Shown: positions 12,343 through 20,308 of the stretch, one piece after another
How positions within the stretch are numbered: position 1 is the stretch's first letter
How the letters are laid out: each line of letters opens with the position of its first letter
IMG/VR virus record: IMGVR_UViG_3300045988_002998
Strand: one strand, 5' to 3'
DNA length: 42,273 nucleotides
Source: a virus
Made by a program: the position numbers and the translations under genes
The notes under the pieces: generated by a model
Seen by the model: only the letters and a program-made list of their open reading frames with translations
Databases searched by the model: none
Told to the model about the DNA's origin: nothing

Positions 12343-12651
12343 ATGGACTACACACAGATCATCTCGGCAGTGATCGCGCTCATCGGCGCGCTCGTTTCGG
12401 CGTTTTTGATCCCGTGGATCAAAACCAAGATTGACGCCGACAAGCTGCAGACCATCCGGGCATACGTCGAAATCGGCGTAAAGGCTGCGGAGCAGCTCTA
12501 TGACGCGACGGACGGCCCGGCGAAAAAAGCGTATGTCCTCAGCTTTTTGGCCGAAAAAGGGATCACATTTGATAGCGAGGTTGTTGACAAACTGATCGAG
12601 GCCACCGTGCTGCAGCTGCACCACGAGCTGTACGGGAGCGAGCGGGTATGA
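12343..12651 (+). CDS. Holin-like protein (single N-terminal TM; LL-H-type architecture by recall)
   Basis: 102 aa; GAAAGGAG RBS; TM IISAVIALIGALVSAFLIPWI followed by an amphipathic region; immediately upstream of and overlapping the endolysin start. Confidence 0.55.
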   Translation: MDYTQIISAVIALIGALVSAFLIPWIKTKIDADKLQTIRAYVEIGVKAAEQLYDATDGPAKKAYVLSFLAEKGITFDSEVVDKLIEATVLQLHHELYGSERV

Positions 12652-13349
12652 GTTACGTTATGAGAGCGTCCGAGCTTGTAAAAAAGCATATCGACGTTGC
12701 AAAGAATTACAAAACCGTGTACATGTGGGGCTGCTTCGGCTCTCCCGTCACGAACGGCATTATCACGGAAAAGGCGAACCAGTACCCGGACTGGTACGAC
12801 GCCGCAAAGCAGGCCAGATTCCGCGGCCTGATCGGGAAGGGCTACTTTGGCTTTGACTGTGTGAATCTCACAAAGGGGATCCTGTGGGGATGGAACGGCA
12901 ACAAAAATGCCTACCACGGCGGCGCACGCTACGCCGGCAACGCCGTCCCGGACGTCTCCGCAGACGGCATGATCGCGAAGTGTCAGGACGTATCCGCGTC
13001 CGGCTGGGACAAGCTGATTCCCGGCGAGGGCCTCTGGATGCCCGGCCACTGGGGACTGTACATCGGAGACGGTCTCGCGGTCGAGTGTACGCCGATCTGG
13101 GACAACGGCGTGCAGATCACCTGTGTCGGCAACATCGGCCTCAAGGGCGGCTACAACAGCCGTGTGTGGAAGAAGCACGGCAAGCTCCCGTGGGTGGACT
13201 ACGACACGGAAACCGTCGACAAGGCCGTCGAGGACGCCAAGAAGACCATCAAGACGAAGGCCGGACTTGCGGACAACACGATTAAATATCTGGCAGATTA
13301 CAAGTACGGCGATGACCTGCTGAAAAAATTGGCTGCGGCTATGAAGTAA
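12648..13349 (+). CDS. Endolysin, NlpC/P60-like cysteine peptidase
   Basis: 233 aa; FGFDCVNLTKG (Cys) and PGHWGLYIGDGLAVECT (His) arrangement typical of NlpC/P60; follows the holin. Confidence 0.7.
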   Translation: MSYVMRASELVKKHIDVAKNYKTVYMWGCFGSPVTNGIITEKANQYPDWYDAAKQARFRGLIGKGYFGFDCVNLTKGILWGWNGNKNAYHGGARYAGNAVPDVSADGMIAKCQDVSASGWDKLIPGEGLWMPGHWGLYIGDGLAVECTPIWDNGVQITCVGNIGLKGGYNSRVWKKHGKLPWVDYDTETVDKAVEDAKKTIKTKAGLADNTIKYLADYKYGDDLLKKLAAAMK

Positions 13350-13361
13350 GGAGGCGGCGCG

Positions 13362-13610
13362 ATGGCACCGCAGGCACGAGTTAATCTGCCGCCGGAGCTT
13401 GGCAGGCTGACGCGGAAGGACATGGAGGCTGTGATCTATCAGGCCAATCTTGGACGCGAGAACTCGCAGATCGCGCAGCTTTATTTCGTGGATAAGCTCC
13501 CGCAAGTGGACGTTGCAACAGAATTGTATCTTGGCCGCGCCACCGTGCAGCGCCGCCTGCCGGAGATCATGCGGGAAATGCAGCGGACATCGAGCAAACT
13601 GTACAACTGA
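13362..13610 (+). CDS. Small sigma-70 region-4-like HTH protein
   Basis: 82 aa; AAGGAGG RBS; IAQLYFVDKLPQVDVATELYLGRATVQRRLPEI resembles sigma/LuxR-type region 4. Confidence 0.5.
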   Translation: MAPQARVNLPPELGRLTRKDMEAVIYQANLGRENSQIAQLYFVDKLPQVDVATELYLGRATVQRRLPEIMREMQRTSSKLYN

Positions 13611-13663: not shown

Positions 13664-13692
13664 TTGACTTTTACGCTCATTGAGCGTATAAT
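13664..13692 (+). promoter_or_regulatory. Sigma-A-type promoter of the accessory island
   Basis: TTGACT (13664..13669), 17-nt spacer, TATAAT (13687..13692). Confidence 0.7.
13673..13687. promoter_or_regulatory. 15-bp perfect palindrome (operator candidate) in the promoter spacer
   Basis: ACGCTCA-T-TGAGCGT lies between the -35 and -10 and touches the first base of the -10. Confidence 0.45.
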
Positions 13693-13736: not shown

Positions 13737-14012
13737 ATGGCACTCAACACTTACGGTATTAAAATGATCGGCCTGCGGAAGACGTCCGGAGCGACGATCA
13801 ACAGCAGCAACGGCTACAGCCAGATTTCCTATGACAAGGCGACCGGTGAGCTCCTCGAATCCTGGCACGTCGGATCCCCGATGAACAGTTGGGCGGAATA
13901 TCATGACCATGACGTGATTCACGTCTGCAACACGTCCCGTCATATGACGATGCAGCAGCTTGCCGATGCCGTCCACTGCGCGCTGACCCGCCGCCCGCTT
14001 GAGGCATTTTAA
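13737..14012 (+). CDS. Hypothetical protein (island gene A)
   Basis: 91 aa; GGGAGGT RBS 6 nt upstream; first gene after the island promoter. Confidence 0.5.
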   Translation: MALNTYGIKMIGLRKTSGATINSSNGYSQISYDKATGELLESWHVGSPMNSWAEYHDHDVIHVCNTSRHMTMQQLADAVHCALTRRPLEAF

Positions 14013-14015
14013 TCG

Positions 14016-14726
14016 ATGGCAGCGGGGAGACTGCCGGACGGCGGACGCAGAAAGATTGGCGGTACGGACTTCTGCGTCAGCTGCGGGAAGCCATATATTA
14101 TAACCGCTCCCGCGCAAAGCTACTGCCCGGAGTGCGCGCCGATTAAGCGCACAGAAGACCGGAGCGCATTCGTGAGAGTGTCTGCCGGAAACGGCCCCCG
14201 AAGGTTGGGCACAACGGACGTGTGCGCACGGTGCGGCACCATTTACACACTGACAGGGCCAAGGCAAAAATATTGCCCCAAGTGCGCGGATGCGCTGAAA
14301 CTCAACATATCCCGGCGTCACCTGGGTGATACGGCAACCTGTGAGATGTGCGGCGCTGAATATACCATTGCCGCCGGGAACCAGCGGTTTTGCCCGCGCT
14401 GCTCGCGCGTCCCGTCTGCGATAAAAAGGACGGTAGAGCCGTCCAGGCGGAAGCCGCGCAGGCTTAAGCCGCACAGGAAGACGATCCGTGATGATCTTGA
14501 CTGCGTTCCGTCGACGTTCCGCGACCTGCTTGATCGTTACGACATAACGCAAAGCCGTTTTGCGGAATACTTTGGCCTTGACGTTAGCACCGTTAGTAGG
14601 TGGTGCTCTGGTGAAATCGTATGCAGGCCTTATATCATTGCTATGGCCGCGAAGATTCTGTCGCTTGCCGCCGACGAGGTGCGCGGCGACGCCGAAAATT
14701 GCAAAAATGAGGAGGATCCCACATGA
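14016..14726 (+). CDS. Triple zinc-ribbon + C-terminal HTH protein (island gene B)
   Basis: Three repeats of the C-x2-C...(Y/F)CP-x-C type (FCVSCGKPYIITAPAQSYCPEC / VCARCGTIYTLTGPRQKYCPKC / TCEMCGAEYTIAAGNQRFCPRC). C-terminal FAEYFGLDVSTVSRWCSGEIVCRPYIIAMAAKIL. Confidence 0.6.
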   Translation: MAAGRLPDGGRRKIGGTDFCVSCGKPYIITAPAQSYCPECAPIKRTEDRSAFVRVSAGNGPRRLGTTDVCARCGTIYTLTGPRQKYCPKCADALKLNISRRHLGDTATCEMCGAEYTIAAGNQRFCPRCSRVPSAIKRTVEPSRRKPRRLKPHRKTIRDDLDCVPSTFRDLLDRYDITQSRFAEYFGLDVSTVSRWCSGEIVCRPYIIAMAAKILSLAADEVRGDAENCKNEEDPT

Positions 14727-15064
14727 AACTCACGCCCGCAATCCGCGCTGCTCTCTACGCCGAGACCGGCGCATACACTGACCGCGACGCCTATATCTCG
14801 GATCTGGCACTATCAAGCATCTGGGGCGACGCTGAAGACGCCGAGATCCCAGCGGAACGGCTTGCACTGCTCTGCGCGGTCTGGGACGGCGCGCACTGCA
14901 CAGCCCCGGAGCTTCTTAAAAAATACGGACTGTCACAGACCGGCTTTGCACAGTATTTTAACGTCCCCCTGCGCACCGTGCAGGGCTGGTGCCTCGGTGA
15001 GCGCGCATGCCCGCCGTATGTGATCGCGATGGCCGCGGAAATCTTAGCCATGAACGATCGATAA
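14723..15064 (+). CDS. HTH protein, paralogue of the C-terminal domain of gene B (island gene C)
   Basis: 113 aa; FAQYFNVPLRTVQGWCLGERACPPYVIAMAAEIL aligns with the C-terminus of 14016..14726; ATGA overlap. Confidence 0.55.
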   Translation: MKLTPAIRAALYAETGAYTDRDAYISDLALSSIWGDAEDAEIPAERLALLCAVWDGAHCTAPELLKKYGLSQTGFAQYFNVPLRTVQGWCLGERACPPYVIAMAAEILAMNDR

Positions 15065-15145: not shown

Positions 15146-15192
15146 AAAAGCCCATACTGGACACATCAAAGGAGTGTTCGGTATGGGCTTTT
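15146..15192 (+). promoter_or_regulatory. 12-bp perfect hairpin enclosing the SD and start codon of 15183..15569
   Basis: aaaagcccatac (15146..15157) pairs with gtatgggctttt (15181..15192). The loop contains AAAGGAG and the right arm contains ATG 15183. Confidence 0.5.
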
Positions 15193-15569
15193 CTTATTTC
15201 AATCCAAATCCCGCCGGGCGGCAGGTCGGGGACTGCACTGTTCGAGCAATCGCAAAGGCGACAGGGAAAAGCTGGGATGAAATATATATCGGGCTGTGCT
15301 TGCAAGGTCTGATCTTGGGCGATCTTCCGAGTGCGAACAGTGTATGGGGTGCATACCTCCGGCAGCATGGTTTTACCCGGAACGTGATACCGGACACCTG
15401 CCCGGATTGCTACACGGTCGGCAGGTTTGCCGATGAGCACCCGCGCGGGACGTATATTCTCGCCCTTTCTGGGCATGTAGTGTGCGTGCAGGATGGGACG
15501 ATCTATGACAGCTGGAATAGCGAGACCGAAATACCGCTTTATTACTGGGTAAAAGAAACGGAGGAATGA
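15183..15569 (+). CDS. Papain-like (Cys-His-Asp) fold protein, function unknown (island gene D)
   Basis: AAAGGAG sits 8 nt before ATG 15183 (the track GTG 15174 lies inside the SD). VGDCTVRAIA (Cys), SGHVVCV (His), IYDSWN (Asp) ordering. Confidence 0.45.
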   Translation: MGFSYFNPNPAGRQVGDCTVRAIAKATGKSWDEIYIGLCLQGLILGDLPSANSVWGAYLRQHGFTRNVIPDTCPDCYTVGRFADEHPRGTYILALSGHVVCVQDGTIYDSWNSETEIPLYYWVKETEE

Positions 15570-15571
15570 AC

Positions 15572-16015
15572 ATGGCATATCCCTATTTCAATCCCTATTA
15601 TCCGCAGCCGATGCCGGATAACCTCATGCAGATGCGGCAGATGCAGCAGCCACAGATGCAGCCCATGCAGCAGCCTATGTCGCAGCCAGTGCAACAGAAC
15701 CCCATTGCGCAGAGCGGCGTGCAGTGGGTAAGCGGCGAGCAGGAGGCAAGGGGTTATCTTATCGCGCCCAACTCCGCTGTGGCGCTGTGGGATTCTACCG
15801 CGCCGACTGTGTATCTCAAGCAGGCGGATGCAAGCGGAAAGCCGACGCTCAAGATTTACGACCTTGTAGAGCGCGCAGAAACGCCACATACAGCTCCGCA
15901 GGGAAAGGGCGTGGAATTTGTCACCCGTAAAGAGTTTGACGCGCTGGCGGCGCTTGTGGGCGAAATAAAGGGCAAAAAGAAACGCAAGGCCGAGGAGGAC
16001 GAAGACGATGAGTAA
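15572..16015 (+). CDS. Q/P/M-rich N-terminus protein (island gene E)
   Basis: GGAGG (15560..15564) is 7 nt before ATG 15572; the alternative ATG 15566 is only 1 nt from the SD. N-terminus YPYFNPYYPQPMPDNLMQMRQMQQPQMQPMQQPMSQPVQQ, acidic/lysine tail. Confidence 0.5.
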   Translation: MAYPYFNPYYPQPMPDNLMQMRQMQQPQMQPMQQPMSQPVQQNPIAQSGVQWVSGEQEARGYLIAPNSAVALWDSTAPTVYLKQADASGKPTLKIYDLVERAETPHTAPQGKGVEFVTRKEFDALAALVGEIKGKKKRKAEEDEDDE

Positions 16016-16220
16016 TCCGTTTATGGCCGCGCTGGGCGGCGGGCAGGGTCCTATGGGCAACTTTGCCCAGATGGTGCAGCAGTTTAACCAGTTCAAATCG
16101 AATTTCAAGGGCGACCCAAAAGCCGAGGTCGAAAAGCTCTTGCAGAGTGGTAGGCTAAACCAGCAGCAGCTCAATCAGCTACAGCAGATGGCGAAGCAGT
16201 TTCAAAGCCTGATGCAGTAA
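16008..16220 (+). CDS. Small Q-rich protein (island gene F)
   Basis: 70 aa; overlaps the upstream stop; LNQQQLNQLQQMAKQFQSLMQ. Confidence 0.45.
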   Translation: MSNPFMAALGGGQGPMGNFAQMVQQFNQFKSNFKGDPKAEVEKLLQSGRLNQQQLNQLQQMAKQFQSLMQ

Positions 16221-16232
16221 TCATCAACATAA

Positions 16233-16257
16233 ATCAACATCGTGGCCACGATTTGAT
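16233..16257 (+). promoter_or_regulatory. Intercistronic hairpin (14-bp perfect palindrome core)
   Basis: atcgtggccacgat (16239..16252), extended by 5 bp with one bulge; followed by an A/T-rich tract. Confidence 0.3.
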
Positions 16258-16286
16258 GAATAAAAATTTTTCAAAGGAGTGATACT

Positions 16287-17063
16287 ATGTCTCTTTCTGA
16301 CGGCGGCGTTCAGGCCACTATGCCTGTTGCGCCAACCGGCATGATGAACAGCGGCTTTGGCGGCTTCGGCGGCGATGGCGCGTGGTGGATCATCATTCTT
16401 TTCCTGTTTGTTTTCTGCGGATGGGGAAACAACGGCTGGGGAAACAACGGCAACAGCGGTGCTGCTGACAATTACGTCCTTGCAAGCGATTTTGCCACTC
16501 TTCAGCGCCAGATCGACAGCGCAGCATCGACGATCGAACGTAAAGGCGACATTACGCAGCAGGGCATCTGCGATGGCTTCTACGCCATGAACACTACGCT
16601 GCTGAACGGCTTTGCGGGCGCCAATCAGAACATGAACAGCGGTTTCCAGAATGCCGAGCTTTCCCGCTGCAACCAGCAGGCAGCTCTCATGCAGCAGCTC
16701 AACGCCATGCAGATGCAGGCCGCAGATTGCTGCTGCGAAAACCGTGCAGCTATCGCCCAGGTGCGCTACGACATGGCGACGCAGGCGTGCGACACGCGCA
16801 ACACCGTGCAGAACGCCACGCGCGACATCATTGACGCGAACAACCAGAACAGCCGCGCCATCCTCGACTTCCTGACGCAAAGCAAGCTGTCCGACCTCCA
16901 GACTGAGAATCAGAATCTGAAGCTGGCGGCATCTCAGTCCGCGCAGAACAACTATCTGATCTCGCAGCTGCGTCCGTGTCCTTCGCCTGCCTACATTACT
17001 TGTAACCCGTGGGCAGGCAGCGGTTACGGCGGCTGTGGCTGCAATCAGGGTTGTGGCTGCTGA
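16287..17063 (+). CDS. Gly-rich/TM N-terminus, Q/N-rich coiled region, Cys-rich C-terminus protein (island gene G)
   Basis: 258 aa; AAAGGAG RBS; GFGGFGGDGAWWIIILFLFVFCGWGNNGWGNNG; ADCCCENR; C-terminus GSGYGGCGCNQGCGC. Confidence 0.55.
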   Translation: MSLSDGGVQATMPVAPTGMMNSGFGGFGGDGAWWIIILFLFVFCGWGNNGWGNNGNSGAADNYVLASDFATLQRQIDSAASTIERKGDITQQGICDGFYAMNTTLLNGFAGANQNMNSGFQNAELSRCNQQAALMQQLNAMQMQAADCCCENRAAIAQVRYDMATQACDTRNTVQNATRDIIDANNQNSRAILDFLTQSKLSDLQTENQNLKLAASQSAQNNYLISQLRPCPSPAYITCNPWAGSGYGGCGCNQGCGC

Positions 17064-17132
17064 CAACTGCATAGCATAGCTTTTTCGTGACTTCACGAAA
17101 ATGGTCGGCCCCGTGCCGATACTAACAACAAC

Positions 17133-17165
17133 GCGGCGGGGCTATTGCCTCGCCGCTGTATTTTA
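17133..17165 (+). terminator. Rho-independent terminator after gene G
   Basis: gcggcggggc-tatt-gcctcgccgc (10 bp with one G-U), then tgtaTTTT. Confidence 0.6.
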
Positions 17166-17205
17166 ACATGGTTGATTTCGACCACTTTAGAAAGGACTGA
17201 TTATT

Positions 17206-17628
17206 TTGGCAGAATACACAAACGCGAATATTGTGAGCGTAGCCGCAGGCCAGAACGTTCCCTTGACCGAAACGGCGGTCAATAGCAAGCCGTGTATCGT
17301 GCATCGCCAGGGCGCAGGCATTGTCACGCTGCGCGGTCTCACTAATCAAAATCGCGCCCTGTTTAGGATCTCCTTTGGCGGCAACATCGCTATTCCCACC
17401 GGAGGCACGGTCGAGGCCATCACGGCGGCGCTTGCCATCAACGGAGAGCCGCTGACCAGTGCAACAGCTACCGTCACGCCTGCTGCGGTAGAAAACTACT
17501 TTAACATTTATGTTTCCGCACAGGTCTGCGTCCCGAAAGGCTGCTGCCTGACGGTCGCAATGGAAAACACCAGCACTCAGGCCGTCAACTTCGCCAACTC
17601 GAACCTGACGGTTGAGAGAATCGCGTGA
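17206..17628 (+). CDS. Small beta-rich protein resembling the BclA C-terminal (TNF/C1q-like jelly-roll) domain (island gene H)
   Basis: 140 aa; TTG start. The pattern ...LFRISFGGNIAIP...ALAINGEPL...CCLTVAMENTS...NSNLTVERIA parallels the BclA CTD ending ...IIIEKVA (recall, not searched). Confidence 0.4.
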   Translation: MAEYTNANIVSVAAGQNVPLTETAVNSKPCIVHRQGAGIVTLRGLTNQNRALFRISFGGNIAIPTGGTVEAITAALAINGEPLTSATATVTPAAVENYFNIYVSAQVCVPKGCCLTVAMENTSTQAVNFANSNLTVERIA

Positions 17629-17641
17629 AAGGAGAATGGAC

Positions 17642-18019
17642 ATGAGTAATAAAGCAATGTATGATCTTCGTGAAATGCTCTGCAAAGAGCTTGACGAAAT
17701 CGCCGACAAGCGCGAAATGTCTGCGGGCGATTTGGATGCGATCCAGAAGCTGACCAGCTCCATCAAGAATACCTACAAGATCGAGATGGCTGAAGACGGC
17801 GGCTATTCCCGAGATGGCGAGTGGGAGGCGGATATGCGCGGCACATATGGACGCGGAAGTTCATACCGTGGGCGCCGCCGCGACGCAATGGGCCGTTACA
17901 GCCGCACCGACGCCCGCGAGCACATGCATGCGCAGCTGGAGGATATGATGCGCGATGCGGACGACGATAAGGCCCGCGACGCAATCCGTCGCTGCATGGA
18001 GCAAATCGACCGGGCATAA
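17642..18019 (+). CDS. Hypothetical protein with R/G/Y/S-rich centre (island gene I)
   Basis: AAAGGAG 7 nt before ATG 17642; GGYSRDGEWEADMRGTYGRGSSYRGRRRDAMGRYSR flanked by helical acidic segments. Confidence 0.5.
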   Translation: MSNKAMYDLREMLCKELDEIADKREMSAGDLDAIQKLTSSIKNTYKIEMAEDGGYSRDGEWEADMRGTYGRGSSYRGRRRDAMGRYSRTDAREHMHAQLEDMMRDADDDKARDAIRRCMEQIDRA

Positions 18020-18031
18020 GGAGGGGTACGC

Positions 18032-18388
18032 ATGCTGGATAAAGCCGAGATCCGCAAGGAGATAGCGCGGCTGGAATATGAGGAATCCAGCTATCCCAAC
18101 TATGCCAAACTCGCGAATCTGTACACGATCCGCAAGCAGATGCAGGAGGAAGAACAGGGCGCGCGAAACATAGCCGCTTTTTCTTATTCCGGCGATCCTG
18201 CACCAGCCCCTGTTTCCGAGCAGCCGGAAACAATAAGCGAGTACGGTGATAGCGATTTCTTGCGCACCGTAGCCGGAAAAGATCCCGCACGTGTCTGGCC
18301 AATCATGGACGAGTTGATGGATACGGTATTGCTTGTCAAGCGAAGCGTGTATGATTCCGTTATGCGGAAGATATCCGATACAAGATAA
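18032..18388 (+). CDS. Hypothetical protein (island gene J)
   Basis: 118 aa; GGAGGGG RBS; last gene before attP. Confidence 0.45.
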   Translation: MLDKAEIRKEIARLEYEESSYPNYAKLANLYTIRKQMQEEEQGARNIAAFSYSGDPAPAPVSEQPETISEYGDSDFLRTVAGKDPARVWPIMDELMDTVLLVKRSVYDSVMRKISDTR

Positions 18389-18455: not shown

Positions 18456-18500
18456 ATGGGGTTCAAGAGGCCGCTGGTTCGAATCCAGTCACTCGGACCA
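18456..18500 (+). other. attP core candidate: 3' fragment of a tRNA gene
   Basis: T-arm GCTGG-TTCGAAT-CCAGT (18473..18489), acceptor strand CACTCGG, discriminator A, CCA (18498..18500). No matching 5' acceptor strand (CCGAGTG) lies upstream. Confidence 0.6.
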
Positions 18501-18516
18501 ATGCAAAACGGGAAAA

Positions 18517-18548
18517 GCCCTGAAACCGCAAAGGTTTCAGGGCTTTTT
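18517..18548 (+). terminator. Rho-independent terminator directly after the tRNA fragment
   Basis: gccctgaaacc-gcaaa-ggtttcagggc (11-bp perfect stem) followed by TTTTT. Confidence 0.8.
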
Positions 18549-18600
18549 CTTTTCTTCTCCGTAAAGGCAAAATCACGCCAGATTTCGAGAAATCACGTTG

Positions 18601-18633: not shown

Positions 18634-19752
18634 CTAGATCGCGTTTATGATTTTCTTCAAGTCTTCCAGATTCACGTCTTGGTAGTACCGGAGCATCTCA
18701 GGGCTTGCGTGGCCGATCAATTTCATTTTATCCTTGTCAGGCGCAACAACTTTTTTCATCAATGTCGCGAATGTGTGCCTGCATGTATGCGGCGAATATT
18801 TGTGGATTCCGTTTACCATTGGGTTTTCAATGCCGACGGCTTCTAGTGTGGGGTAAAAAACAGCGTCCCGGAATCTATCATAGGAAAATTGGTTACCTTT
18901 TTCATCGCAGAACAACGCGCCGGACGCTTTTCCGTCGTAAAGACGATCAATAATGGGCTGGATCTTCGGGCTGATGGGAACGACACGATTTTTTCCAGCC
19001 TCCGTTTTCGCACCACCGGTCAGCGTTTTTTTATTCGCATCGTAGCTGTCAACGCTCAGGGCCAGCAGTTCTGACGGTCTGAAGCCGAGATAGCACATTG
19101 CATAAATATAATCCGTGAACGGAATCACGCCGACAGCGTCTCGTATTCTTTCAATCTGTTCTTGCGTAAAGCTTTCCCTCGCCGCTCCGAACTCTCCGCT
19201 GACAATCAGATATTGCCCTAAATTCAGTTCTGCGTAGCCGCGTGGAACTGCGTACTTGTACATAAGCCCTGCTAACGCTTTCATGTTTTCTTTTGTTCTT
19301 CTTCCTCTCGGGCATTCGTCCATGCATTCCTGCAAATCATCTATTTCTATATCTTCCAGTTTCCAGAACTCAACTTGATAAAAGTATTTTTCGGCTGATT
19401 TGTAGCAATCAATTGTGGATTTCCCAGCTCTGTGAGTGGGGAGCCACATTTCGTAGAGTTCACGCCATGTAATTGCTTTTTCGCGCTTCTTCTGCCCGGC
19501 CAACATCGGCAGGTAGTCAAGCGCTTCTTTTTTTGTGCGGAATCCGCATTTCCGAGCAACAACGCGCTTTACAGATCCGTTTTCTTCTCGGTATCCCTTT
19601 GTTATTTCCGCTACCCATTTATCGTTGCGCCGGTATACCGAGCCCGTGCCGTTCCCGCGTTTTGTGGCCTTTTTTGTTTGCTGTTTTTTCCCGCACCAGC
19701 AACAGTAGGGCGCGCCGTCTGGAATTTCCTTTTTACACTTGATGCACTCCAT
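18634..19752 (-). CDS. int: Tyrosine integrase with N-terminal zinc ribbon
   Basis: MECIKCKKEIPDGAPYCCWCGKK; catalytic-type motifs GFRPSELLAL, HTCRHTFATLM, LIGHASPEMLRYYQDV. GGAGGG precedes ATG 19752 (track start 19764 is a GTG inside the SD). Confidence 0.9.
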   Translation of the reverse strand: MECIKCKKEIPDGAPYCCWCGKKQQTKKATKRGNGTGSVYRRNDKWVAEITKGYREENGSVKRVVARKCGFRTKKEALDYLPMLAGQKKREKAITWRELYEMWLPTHRAGKSTIDCYKSAEKYFYQVEFWKLEDIEIDDLQECMDECPRGRRTKENMKALAGLMYKYAVPRGYAELNLGQYLIVSGEFGAARESFTQEQIERIRDAVGVIPFTDYIYAMCYLGFRPSELLALSVDSYDANKKTLTGGAKTEAGKNRVVPISPKIQPIIDRLYDGKASGALFCDEKGNQFSYDRFRDAVFYPTLEAVGIENPMVNGIHKYSPHTCRHTFATLMKKVVAPDKDKMKLIGHASPEMLRYYQDVNLEDLKKIINAI

Positions 19753-20308
19753 GTTTCCCTCCACGTTCTTTTCGGATCGCGTAGAAAGTAATTGCCGAAG
19801 CCAGAACCGAACCTACGATCAGGGCGATACACGCCCATGCGGTTACGGTCAAATCTCCATCGCGAATGAGGCCTGCGTTCCGAATCTGCGCATCCGTCAC
19901 AAGGCAAGCAACCAGGGAAAAGGAGAGCAGCAAACAAAATAGGGCGAGAACGTAACACATTGTATGTGTAGACCTTATCTGCGCGCTCTGTAGGGCTGTT
20001 GCTGCCTCCAGCTTGGCGTTTTCAAGCTCGACATGATGGATCTGCTTGGTCAGCTTTTCCGGGCTTCCGACGGGATTTTCAAGGCCGAACAGCTCGTCGA
20101 GCGACAGACCAAGCGTTTTACATATTGCGGCCGAGTTATAAAGCCGTGGATCCGCTTGTGTTCCAGCATATAATCGGCTCACGGTGGAGAAGGAAACGCC
20201 GGACTTTTCCGACAGCTCCTCCAGCGTCATTCCGCTGTGATCTTTCGCATTTCTGATTTTCCCATGATACGCGCCGATAAACGGCGCGAGTTCCTGTATC
20301 GCGGACAT
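19733..20308 (-). CDS. XRE-family HTH regulator with C-terminal double transmembrane anchor
   Basis: 191 aa; GGAGGAG RBS. HTH MTLEELSEKSGVSFSTVSRLYAG, coiled linker, then CYVLALFCLLLSFSLVACLV and WACIALIVGSVLASAITFYAI. The 3' end overlaps the int start by 20 nt. Confidence 0.65.
   Translation of the reverse strand: MSAIQELAPFIGAYHGKIRNAKDHSGMTLEELSEKSGVSFSTVSRLYAGTQADPRLYNSAAICKTLGLSLDELFGLENPVGSPEKLTKQIHHVELENAKLEAATALQSAQIRSTHTMCYVLALFCLLLSFSLVACLVTDAQIRNAGLIRDGDLTVTAWACIALIVGSVLASAITFYAIRKERGGKHGVHQV

Follow-up and report, generated by a model that had tools for sequence, protein, structure and literature searches.

IMG/VR virus record IMGVR_UViG_3300045988_002998 was analysed as a single stretch of 42,273 nucleotides (nt), referred to here as the window, which resembles the genome of a temperate phage of the siphovirus type. 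Behind its endolysin gene lies a block of small genes on the + strand, six of which (E to J) had been described in an initial annotation, made from the sequence alone, as a candidate module for remodelling the cell or spore surface. All six open reading frames (ORFs) were found on the + strand with the sequence features that had been quoted for them. The set of six is real, and the conserved unit is larger, as it starts one gene earlier and includes D:

D, 15183-15569, + strand: 128 amino acids (aa), member of phrog_3754 (E 1.2e-32).
E, 15566/15572-16015, + strand: protein beginning MAYPYFNPYYPQPMPDNLMQMRQMQQPQMQPMQQPM, member of phrog_21718 (E 1.3e-32).
F, 16008-16220, + strand: 70 aa with 21% Q, member of phrog_22984 (E 4.8e-21), overlapping E by 8 nt.
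G, 16287-17063, + strand: 258 aa, member of phrog_16490 (E 5.8e-42), core component of the unit.
H, 17206-17628, + strand: 140 aa with a TTG start, ending NLTVERIA, member of phrog_20016 (E 7.7e-53).
I, 17612/17636-18019, + strand: helical protein with a central disordered segment rich in R/G/Y/S/D, weak match to phrog_28802 (E 1.4e-9).
J, 18032-18388, + strand: helical protein of 118 aa with the motif YGDSxF...DELMxT...Y.

The overlaps between D and E and between E and F give the block an operon-like appearance. The composition of E, F and G is atypical for the window, with a combined Q and N content of 14%, 30% and 20%, respectively, compared to a mean of 6.9% and a maximum of 13.4% in 49 other ORFs of the window. 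The proteins had also been called unlike normal phage functions, which does not hold for D to H: each is a clear member of an existing PHROG family (E 1e-21 to 8e-53), and they therefore count as ordinary though unexplained phage proteins, none of these families carrying a functional annotation. Searches of D to J against Pfam, NCBIfam and PDB sequences, using single sequences as well as profiles of D, E, G and H, returned nothing significant.

The fold of H was modelled with AlphaFold2 from an alignment of 68 diverse family members, giving a confident model of 11 strands (predicted local distance difference test score, pLDDT, 95.1; predicted template modelling score, pTM, 0.85). When compared to the PDB with Foldseek, the top matches were 9h38, 9h3d, 7r1m, 8d02 and 1wck (E 2.5e-6 to 8e-6; template modelling score, TM, 0.70-0.76), which comprise the F-BclA C-terminal domain, a complex of ExsF with an anchor peptide, the C-terminal domain of BclA (BclA-CTD), ExsFA and BxpB. 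The 17 best-ranked PDB matches were all BclA, F-BclA, ExsFA, BxpB or ExsF (E 2.5e-6 to 1e-5, TM 0.68-0.76), followed by the TNF-family ligand EDA and, at lower TM, by 4-1BBL, C1q-like domains and some phage fibre knobs. The closest matches among predicted viral structures (BFVD) were stand-alone uncharacterised gut-phage proteins of 130-145 aa (TM 0.83-0.90). At the sequence level, the Pfam family BclA_C (PF18573) was matched by two of the 68 family members (best E 7.3e-7), the H protein of the window had no match to it at E ≤ 0.1, and a profile of the H family did not find BclA among the PDB sequences. As modelled, H is confirmed to be a stand-alone TNF/C1q-type jelly roll of the BclA-CTD/BxpB kind, the fold that the initial annotation had proposed for it.

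In its format the modelled H is closer to BxpB and ExsFA than to BclA, because it is a stand-alone domain without a collagen-like stalk; no collagen-like GXX repeats were found in H or its neighbours, and H opens with MAEYT at the first beta strand. BxpB and ExsFA, which are exosporium proteins in the Bacillus cereus group, are likewise stand-alone TNF-like jelly rolls of approximately 140-170 aa lacking a signal peptide, and BxpB shares with H the number of 11 strands per monomer (TM 0.74 to 8d02, 7r1m and 9h3d). The C-terminal domains of BclA and F-BclA have the same fold as H (TM 0.70-0.76 to 9h38, 1wck and 3twi) and a similar C-terminal strand (..NLTVERIA), but H has neither the N-terminal collagen-like GXX repeats nor the exosporium-targeting domain of BclA. 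There are also differences from BxpB and ExsFA, as the sequence identity is just 12-14% and H lacks their disordered Cys-bearing N-terminus, having instead an internal invariant motif (G112-C113-C114). Furthermore, BxpB pairs with the collagen-like BclA or with the ExsY lattice, whereas H is phage-encoded, is paired with a membrane protein and is also found in non-sporulating hosts. The BxpB trimer, built of 11-strand monomers, clamps BclA at residues 20-38 and makes contact with Cys-rich proteins of the basal layer (PMC10470788), and ExsF binds the N-terminal peptide of an F-Anchor protein (PMC12357932).

H is identical in protein (100%) in four further cassettes (L089-L092, 10001-10423), while D, E, F, G, I and J of the same four cassettes are 47-86% identical to those of the window (G 62-70%). 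Only 14-15 of the 423 nt of H differ in these four, and all of the differences are synonymous. The 143 nt upstream of H are approximately 82% identical, compared to approximately 65-70% in the flanks, and one comparison of the 3' end of G gave approximately 86%. With all nucleotide differences synonymous while the neighbouring genes diverge, H reads as an island of very strong purifying selection, and it has probably also been exchanged by recombination. Such conservation is more in keeping with a conserved internal interaction than with a surface adhesin following variable ligands. In the assembly collection, 258 blocks contain the exact H protein of the window, and the H family comprises approximately 7,600 clusters at 90% identity; carriers of the identical H differ in their lysins, and some have a tyrosine integrase, others a serine recombinase.

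The product of G begins with an acidic N-terminal tail devoid of Lys and Arg, followed by a hydrophobic helix flanked by Gly and Trp, a Q/N-rich helical region of approximately 170 aa, a PxPxPAY segment rich in Pro and a tail of the form GCGCxxGCGC at the C-terminus. Within G are found GFGGFGGDGAWWIIILFLFVFCGWGNNGWGNNG, the tail GSGYGGCGCNQGCGC and, among 13 Cys in total, a CCC motif. Near-invariant positions are C148-C150 (the CCC motif), C168, R179-D180, S216-Q217, P232 and P234, and the end is rich in CxC in most homologues. G is the sole protein of the cassette with a hydrophobic segment (peak at residues 27-45), and this helix with its Trp belts is kept in all homologues. Among 26 homologues, the 25 residues before the helix hold on average 0.23 Lys/Arg, and the near absence of these residues argues against an N-in signal anchor. 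Since the N-terminal tail is almost without Lys and Arg, the topology that we infer as most likely places this short tail outside and the large C-terminal part in the cytoplasm. The N-terminus of G had been likened to the tiny YjcZ-type sporulation peptides. NCBIfam presumably includes a YjcZ family model, and G had no NCBIfam or Pfam match at E ≤ 0.1; it is also 258 aa long instead of approximately 30-50, and we do not retain the comparison.

Full-length homologues of G are encoded by crAss-like phages, namely cr115_1 (gp43; BLASTP 2e-17, phrog_16490 E 2e-45) as well as cr53_1, cr116_1, cr52_1, cr1_1, cr10_1 and cr125_1, and by phage C3_41T2LP, isolated on Bacteroides uniformis (phrog_16490, E 9.5e-47). 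The crAss-like proteins share with G the acidic N-terminal tail, the Gly/Trp-flanked helix, the CCC motif, the stretch LxLSASQQAQT...RPxPxPAY..NP and a GCGCGC end, and phrog_16490 holds both the window protein and these crAss-like and Bacteroides phage homologues. In cr115_1 (L094 3406-5391), the G homologue and adjacent proteins contain in-frame TAG codons, for which Gln was substituted to recover the ORFs, consistent with stop-codon recoding; immediately before the G gene come those of a holin, of a LysB/FtsL-like protein and of a DUF7841 protein whose tail is rich in R/G/Y. The C. perfringens homologue of G also gave a marginal tblastn match (E 1e-3) in Caudoviricetes sp. vir335 (BK063680.1, 24577-24990), which is assigned to Methanomassiliicoccales; if real, this match would extend the G family to archaeal viruses. 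Matches of the G profile to influenza HA2 in the PDB (E ~0.5) were insignificant and were attributed to coiled-coil or Gly-rich composition and not to homology. A function of G as a spanin or other lysis accessory was considered and is unlikely: most of the carriers are phages of monoderm Clostridia, the cassette showed no lipobox-bearing partner, and cr115_1 already has, in its LysB/FtsL-like protein, a separate protein with an N-terminal hydrophobic segment and a coiled coil.

When the proteins of the window were compared to phage records by tblastn, the order D-E-F-G-H-I(-J) was found to be kept in Butyrivibrio virus Ceridwen, in Dulem viruses 33 and 35 and in several phage contigs from human faeces, with protein identities of 30-80%. 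Scanning a single genome for each GTDB species gave 145 relatives of H, of which 80 loci were kept and combined with eight loci from phage records. Across these 88 loci, G lies directly upstream of H wherever the length of the contig permits, and the pair is joined by D, E, F and I in most cases and by J in a subset (homologues in approximately 25 loci and in Ceridwen). G-H is thus the constant core of the cassette in this lineage, and the synteny bears out the idea that the genes are inherited as one unit. Some loci seem to hold G-H only, and Lachnospira intestinalis has ORFs of 180 and 78 aa at the positions of E and F which, from their sizes and overlap, may be diverged versions of these two. 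In the phrog_16490/phrog_20016 cassette, Q-rich proteins of the E/F type precede a G-type membrane protein, and a small beta protein comes immediately after it. P0123 and P0225, two metagenomic representatives of the H family in which H is joined to the N-terminal third of D and to the N-terminal half of E, respectively, were considered as Rosetta-stone fusions and rejected, both domains being truncated; they probably arose by deletion within the cassette or are chimeric assemblies.

The cassette is a mobile, non-essential accessory unit that is very common in gut phages, thousands of which carry it. Clostridium perfringens phages CPD1, XP41-N3, 17DYC, HMD-PC1, PMQ04 and CPQ4 all match G, and CPD1 encodes in order an E-like protein (CPD1_036), an F-like protein, an inserted gene, a G-like protein and a small Cys-rich beta protein; a J-like protein is also found in C. 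perfringens phages. The phages phiCP26F, 13O, 34O, 39-O and 9O lack the E-F-G-beta segment, and in the adjoining sequence they are approximately 97% identical to the carrier 17DYC. The presence or absence of the segment between such closely similar phages marks the cassette, by sequence comparison, as dispensable for plaque-forming phages.

The position of the cassette also varies. Here and in the four phages with the identical H it is found between the lysis genes and the integrase, in agreement, for this lineage, with the initial placement of the genes next to the phage attachment site. In Dulem 35, by comparison, it is found inside the head-gene block between the minor and major capsid genes, in Dulem 39 after an integrase, in cr115_1 with G next to the holin and beside virion genes, in C3_41T2LP among recombination genes, and in the C. 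perfringens phages among early or recombination genes. Several of these positions would suit an optional virion appendage, a head fibre, whisker or accessory adhesin for which G and H would supply a trimeric coiled coil topped by a TNF-like knob; the remaining proteins would assist assembly, and the hydrophobic N-terminus of G would anchor in the particle or enter the host membrane at infection. In its favour, the cassette of the window is co-oriented with the late genes and directly follows the tail and lysis genes, and the locations in Dulem 35 and cr115_1 are of the expected kind. TNF-like knobs cap many phage fibres, and H also matches the knob of the phi812 central spike, the binding domain of the short tail fibre of cyanophage A-1(L) and a fibritin-like protein. 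One cassette protein of a Bacteroides phage matches phrog_473, 'virion structural protein' (E 1.4e-8), over a coiled coil, and dispensability is typical of decoration proteins too. Depositors have labelled G homologues 'spike protein/glycoprotein' or 'outer capsid protein/viral fiber', but these labels probably reflect coiled-coil similarity, the HA2 matches being insignificant. We nevertheless consider a virion appendage rather unlikely. A classic hydrophobic helix such as that of G, with Trp belts kept in all homologues, would be uncommon in a fibre protein; H, under extreme purifying selection, shows no diversification of the kind seen in receptor-binding tips, and the C. perfringens and Bacteroides cassettes sit among early or recombination genes. 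No virion proteomics were found for any cassette-carrying phage.

Named hosts of the relatives are gut Oscillospiraceae, Lachnospiraceae and Acutalibacteraceae, and include the non-sporulating genera Subdoligranulum, Lachnospira, Ruminococcus and Butyricicoccus; Prevotella, Collinsella and Methanobrevibacter also appear among the hosts, probably through mis-binned phage contigs. Butyrivibrio fibrisolvens is likewise non-sporulating. It is the host of Ceridwen, which carries the whole cassette and was judged virulent, only a lytic cycle having been seen (PMC7372960).

The AlphaFold2 model of D has a pLDDT of 93.8. Its invariant residues, derived from sets of 26 and 47 homologues, are D17, C18, R21, H98, D109, W111 and S113. 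In the model, C18 starts a helix (18-27), H98 lies in a strand (98-103) and D109 ends another (106-109), which is the papain-like arrangement, with the nucleophile Cys opening a helix and the His and Asp/Asn coming later, on beta strands. The best and only non-trivial fold match was the human cysteine deubiquitinase Josephin-2, below significance (E 0.12, probability 0.77, TM 0.51). The Josephin/MJD deubiquitinases have their Cys (at the start of helix 1), His and Asp in the same order as the invariant residues of D, whereas D is just 128 aa long, the match is weak (E 0.12, TM 0.45-0.51) and D has no sequence match to any Pfam, NCBIfam or PDB family. We thus regard D, on its model, as a candidate papain-like thiol peptidase or isopeptidase. 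D adjoins E in most loci, but it is found alone in Geobacillus GBK2 and has homologues in Bacillus Tsamsa-like phages and Lak megaphages, and for this reason it may be only loosely tied to the cassette.

A de-conjugating isopeptidase would open the way to a module of defence or counter-defence, in which D acts against ubiquitin-like anti-phage systems, or in which G-H mediates abortive infection or exclusion. The Josephin-like fold of D, weak as the match is, and its spread through unrelated phages are in line with this, as are the mobile, presence/absence nature of the cassette at a typical moron position near the phage attachment site (attP), and the homing endonucleases and putative methyltransferase inserted in it, which mark a hotspot. 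The reading is improbable all the same: the Josephin match is below significance, PADLOC gave no match at E ≤ 0.01 for D to J or for the upstream protein p82 (below), and seven co-conserved, mostly low-complexity proteins of structural appearance are atypical of known defence systems.

Of the remaining proteins, E comprises a disordered N-terminus rich in P/Q/M/Y, a conserved domain of approximately 60 aa (motif WVxGExxAxxYxVxPNxxVxLxDS...YxK), a helix and a charged tail; its likely start is at 15572, since homologues begin with MAYP. I is present in most cassette loci, and comparison with the homologues favours the ATG at 17636 over the TTG at 17612 as its start. J has no Pfam or PDB relative, and a relationship to the DUF7841 proteins, neighbours of G in crAss-like and Bacteroides phages, was considered and rejected, hhalign finding none.

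Around and within the cassette, the following further features were located:

1-11.7 kb: tape-measure gene, tail genes and tail-fibre genes.
12343-12651: holin.
12648-13349: endolysin, after which the block of small + strand genes begins.
13362-13610, + strand: p82, an 82-aa helix-turn-helix (HTH) protein resembling region 4 of sigma-70.
17082-17192, + strand: structured region between G and H with four hairpins (RNA fold -50.6 kcal/mol, z-score -3.7 compared to shuffled sequences).
17133-17156: terminator-like hairpin GCGGCGGGGC-TATT-GCCTCGCCGC within the G-H spacer, listed by the terminator scan.
About 18456-18503: sequence like the 3' end of a tRNA, with the T-arm GGTTCGAATCC and acceptor strand, read from the sequence as context and not as part of the cassette.
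18510-18550, + strand: terminator-like hairpin 3' of J from the terminator scan (18-bp stem followed by a T-run), which closes the cassette and the gene block.
18634-19764, - strand: integrase.
19733-20308, - strand: HTH_3 repressor-like gene beside the integrase.

Neither ARAGORN nor Rfam called a tRNA at 18456-18503, and the tRNA 3'-end-like fragment beside the integrase is a plausible but unproven candidate for the attP core, which the initial annotation had placed next to the gene cluster. The C-terminal half of the HTH_3 protein includes hydrophobic segments such as MCYVLALFCLLLSFSLVACLV, and the protein may be a membrane-anchored repressor. Compared to close relatives, the window has a three-gene insertion between p82 and D (13737-15064), made up of a 91-aa ORF, a gene for a protein with several zinc ribbons and an HTH (weak MqsA-antitoxin-like matches) and one for an HTH protein of 113 aa. 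The best promoter match of the region, in a scan limited to the sigma-70-type consensus, precedes this insertion (13664-13692, TTGACT-17-TATAAT, 11 of 12 positions). As the terminator scan listed no terminator-like site between it and D, this predicted promoter could drive the cassette in lysogens. The p82 protein has weak matches to Pfam Sigma70_r4 (E 0.011, below the curated cut-off) and to phrog_36. In at least 11 loci in which D was mapped, a homologue of p82 is found 0-2 kb upstream of D, and a twelfth match is in L090, where D is unmapped; p82 is a candidate regulator associated with the cassette. In L036, an ORF that resembles p82 by eye is found directly upstream of E.

Extra genes recur at the F|G junction or just upstream of G (L002 6410-6961, - strand; L093 4047-4670; L092 8180-9049, - strand; L095 4934-5554). 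They are labelled 'endonuclease' in Dulem 33 and 'I-HmuI' in C3_41T2LP, the 289-aa product of the L092 gene has no match on record, and the inserted gene of CPD1 is presumably HNH endonuclease-like, judged by eye. That they recur at this place in unrelated phages points to a conserved target for homing at the 5' end of G. The G-H spacer may combine an attenuator with an insertion hotspot; in Lachnospiraceae prophages the same gap holds a 371-aa ORF (L036 6825-7940), which by eye we take to be a DNA cytosine methyltransferase.

Taken against this background, lysogenic conversion that remodels the spore coat, the exosporium or the surface of a sporulating host, as the initial annotation proposed, is highly improbable. 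The similarities that invite it are considerable. The nearest solved structures to H are the exosporium proteins BclA-CTD, F-BclA and ExsFA/BxpB, and D to J, like exosporium proteins, have no signal peptides, which fits assembly in the mother-cell cytoplasm. Cys-, Q/N- and R/S/Y-rich low-complexity proteins together with a thiol enzyme recall the cross-linking chemistry of the coat. In the window the cassette adjoins the integrase downstream of the promoter-like site at 13664-13692, and many of the hosts are Clostridia, some of them sporulating. Against this, the cassette or its core is found in phages of non-sporulating and Gram-negative hosts, which makes a role in spore remodelling unlikely: the virulent-judged Ceridwen grows on B. 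fibrisolvens, the G-centred core is encoded by crAss-like phages and a B. uniformis phage, and the other hosts include the four non-sporulating genera named above. Virulent C. perfringens phages exist with or without the cassette, no YjcZ or other sporulation-family hidden Markov model was matched, and the TNF fold is used far beyond spores. No restriction to, or enrichment in, sporulating hosts was seen, and a conversion of spore or cell surfaces is not supported.

We tentatively favour a non-essential role at the host membrane, carried out by a complex assembled in the cell, over a part of the virion. G would oligomerise into a membrane-tethered, Cys-rich coiled-coil stalk, whose Pro/Cys-rich C-terminal tail would dock into an H trimer on the cytoplasmic side, by analogy with the terminal peptides of BclA or F-Anchor that enter BxpB/ExsF trimers. 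The Cys clusters of G (CCC and the GCGC tail) and of H (GCC) could form disulfide or metal cross-links that lock the joint. E, F, I and J would serve as accessory or scaffold subunits of low complexity, and D, as a thiol peptidase or isopeptidase, would process or cross-link these subunits. Infected or lysogenic cells would produce the complex, which would act at the host membrane; assembly inside the cell is suggested because no cassette protein has a signal peptide. Its role would help the phage without being needed for plaque formation, for example by excluding superinfection or by adjusting lysis or egress. Single-pass proteins of superinfection exclusion, HK97 gp15 and lactococcal Sie2009 among them, resemble G in having one hydrophobic helix near the N-terminus, and resemble the cassette in being dispensable for plaque formation and encoded at the end of the late operon or near attP. 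Unlike these, G is much larger, Cys-rich and kept across host phyla, always together with a soluble beta protein and several low-complexity proteins.

Several points weigh against a role at the host membrane. Late-operon positions beside lysis or tail genes fit a virion role equally well. The topology of G was read from charge counts only, and the C-terminal flank of its hydrophobic helix is also without Lys and Arg. Outside this lineage, the gene that follows G is not detectably related to H, and the docking may not generalise: hhalign found no relationship between the H family and gp44 of cr115_1, and an attempt to unite the followers of G (cr115_1 gp44, the 180-aa protein of C3_41T2LP, CPD1_040 and the 17DYC protein) in one family was given up, as the alignment was too weak. 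These alternative partners in Bacteroides, crAss-like and C. perfringens phages do carry Cys clusters (KCCG / CNRRCNCC). D is found without the cassette in other phages, so its function may be unrelated. Finally, superinfection-exclusion proteins are normally lineage-specific, and the conservation of G across host phyla would be unusual for them.

A bolder form of the membrane complex can be conceived, in which phages of Clostridia and Bacteroidota would build, within the infected cell, a covalently cross-linked membrane assembly with the parts list of a miniature exosporium and an ancestry shared with the exosporium adaptors of Bacillus and Clostridium. Its parts would be G as a self-assembling anchor rich in Cys; H or an analogue as a trimeric adaptor like BxpB; E, F and I as low-complexity substrates rich in Q/K and R/Y; and D as a thiol enzyme for cross-linking or processing. 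We regard this as a long shot.

Among the components are kinds already known, namely a TNF-like knob and a candidate papain-like enzyme, and the cassette would belong with the stalk-and-knob trimeric assemblies that phages encode as accessory genes. A narrow literature search found no description of the linked cassette, with its cross-phylum membrane core (phrog_16490) and BxpB-like partner, and nothing relevant on DUF7841 or on phage-encoded BclA-like proteins. Within the gut virome the cassette belongs to the more common unknowns, and its core spans Gram-positive and Gram-negative hosts, as few phage accessory genes do. The pairing of a BxpB/BclA-type knob with a membrane-anchored, Cys-rich stalk provides a structural handle, and the function is directly testable with natural pairs that differ in the cassette (C. 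perfringens 17DYC and phiCP13O) and with the culturable carriers C3_41T2LP and Ceridwen. For the annotation of prophages in Clostridia, a BclA-like fold is not to be taken as evidence of a spore function.

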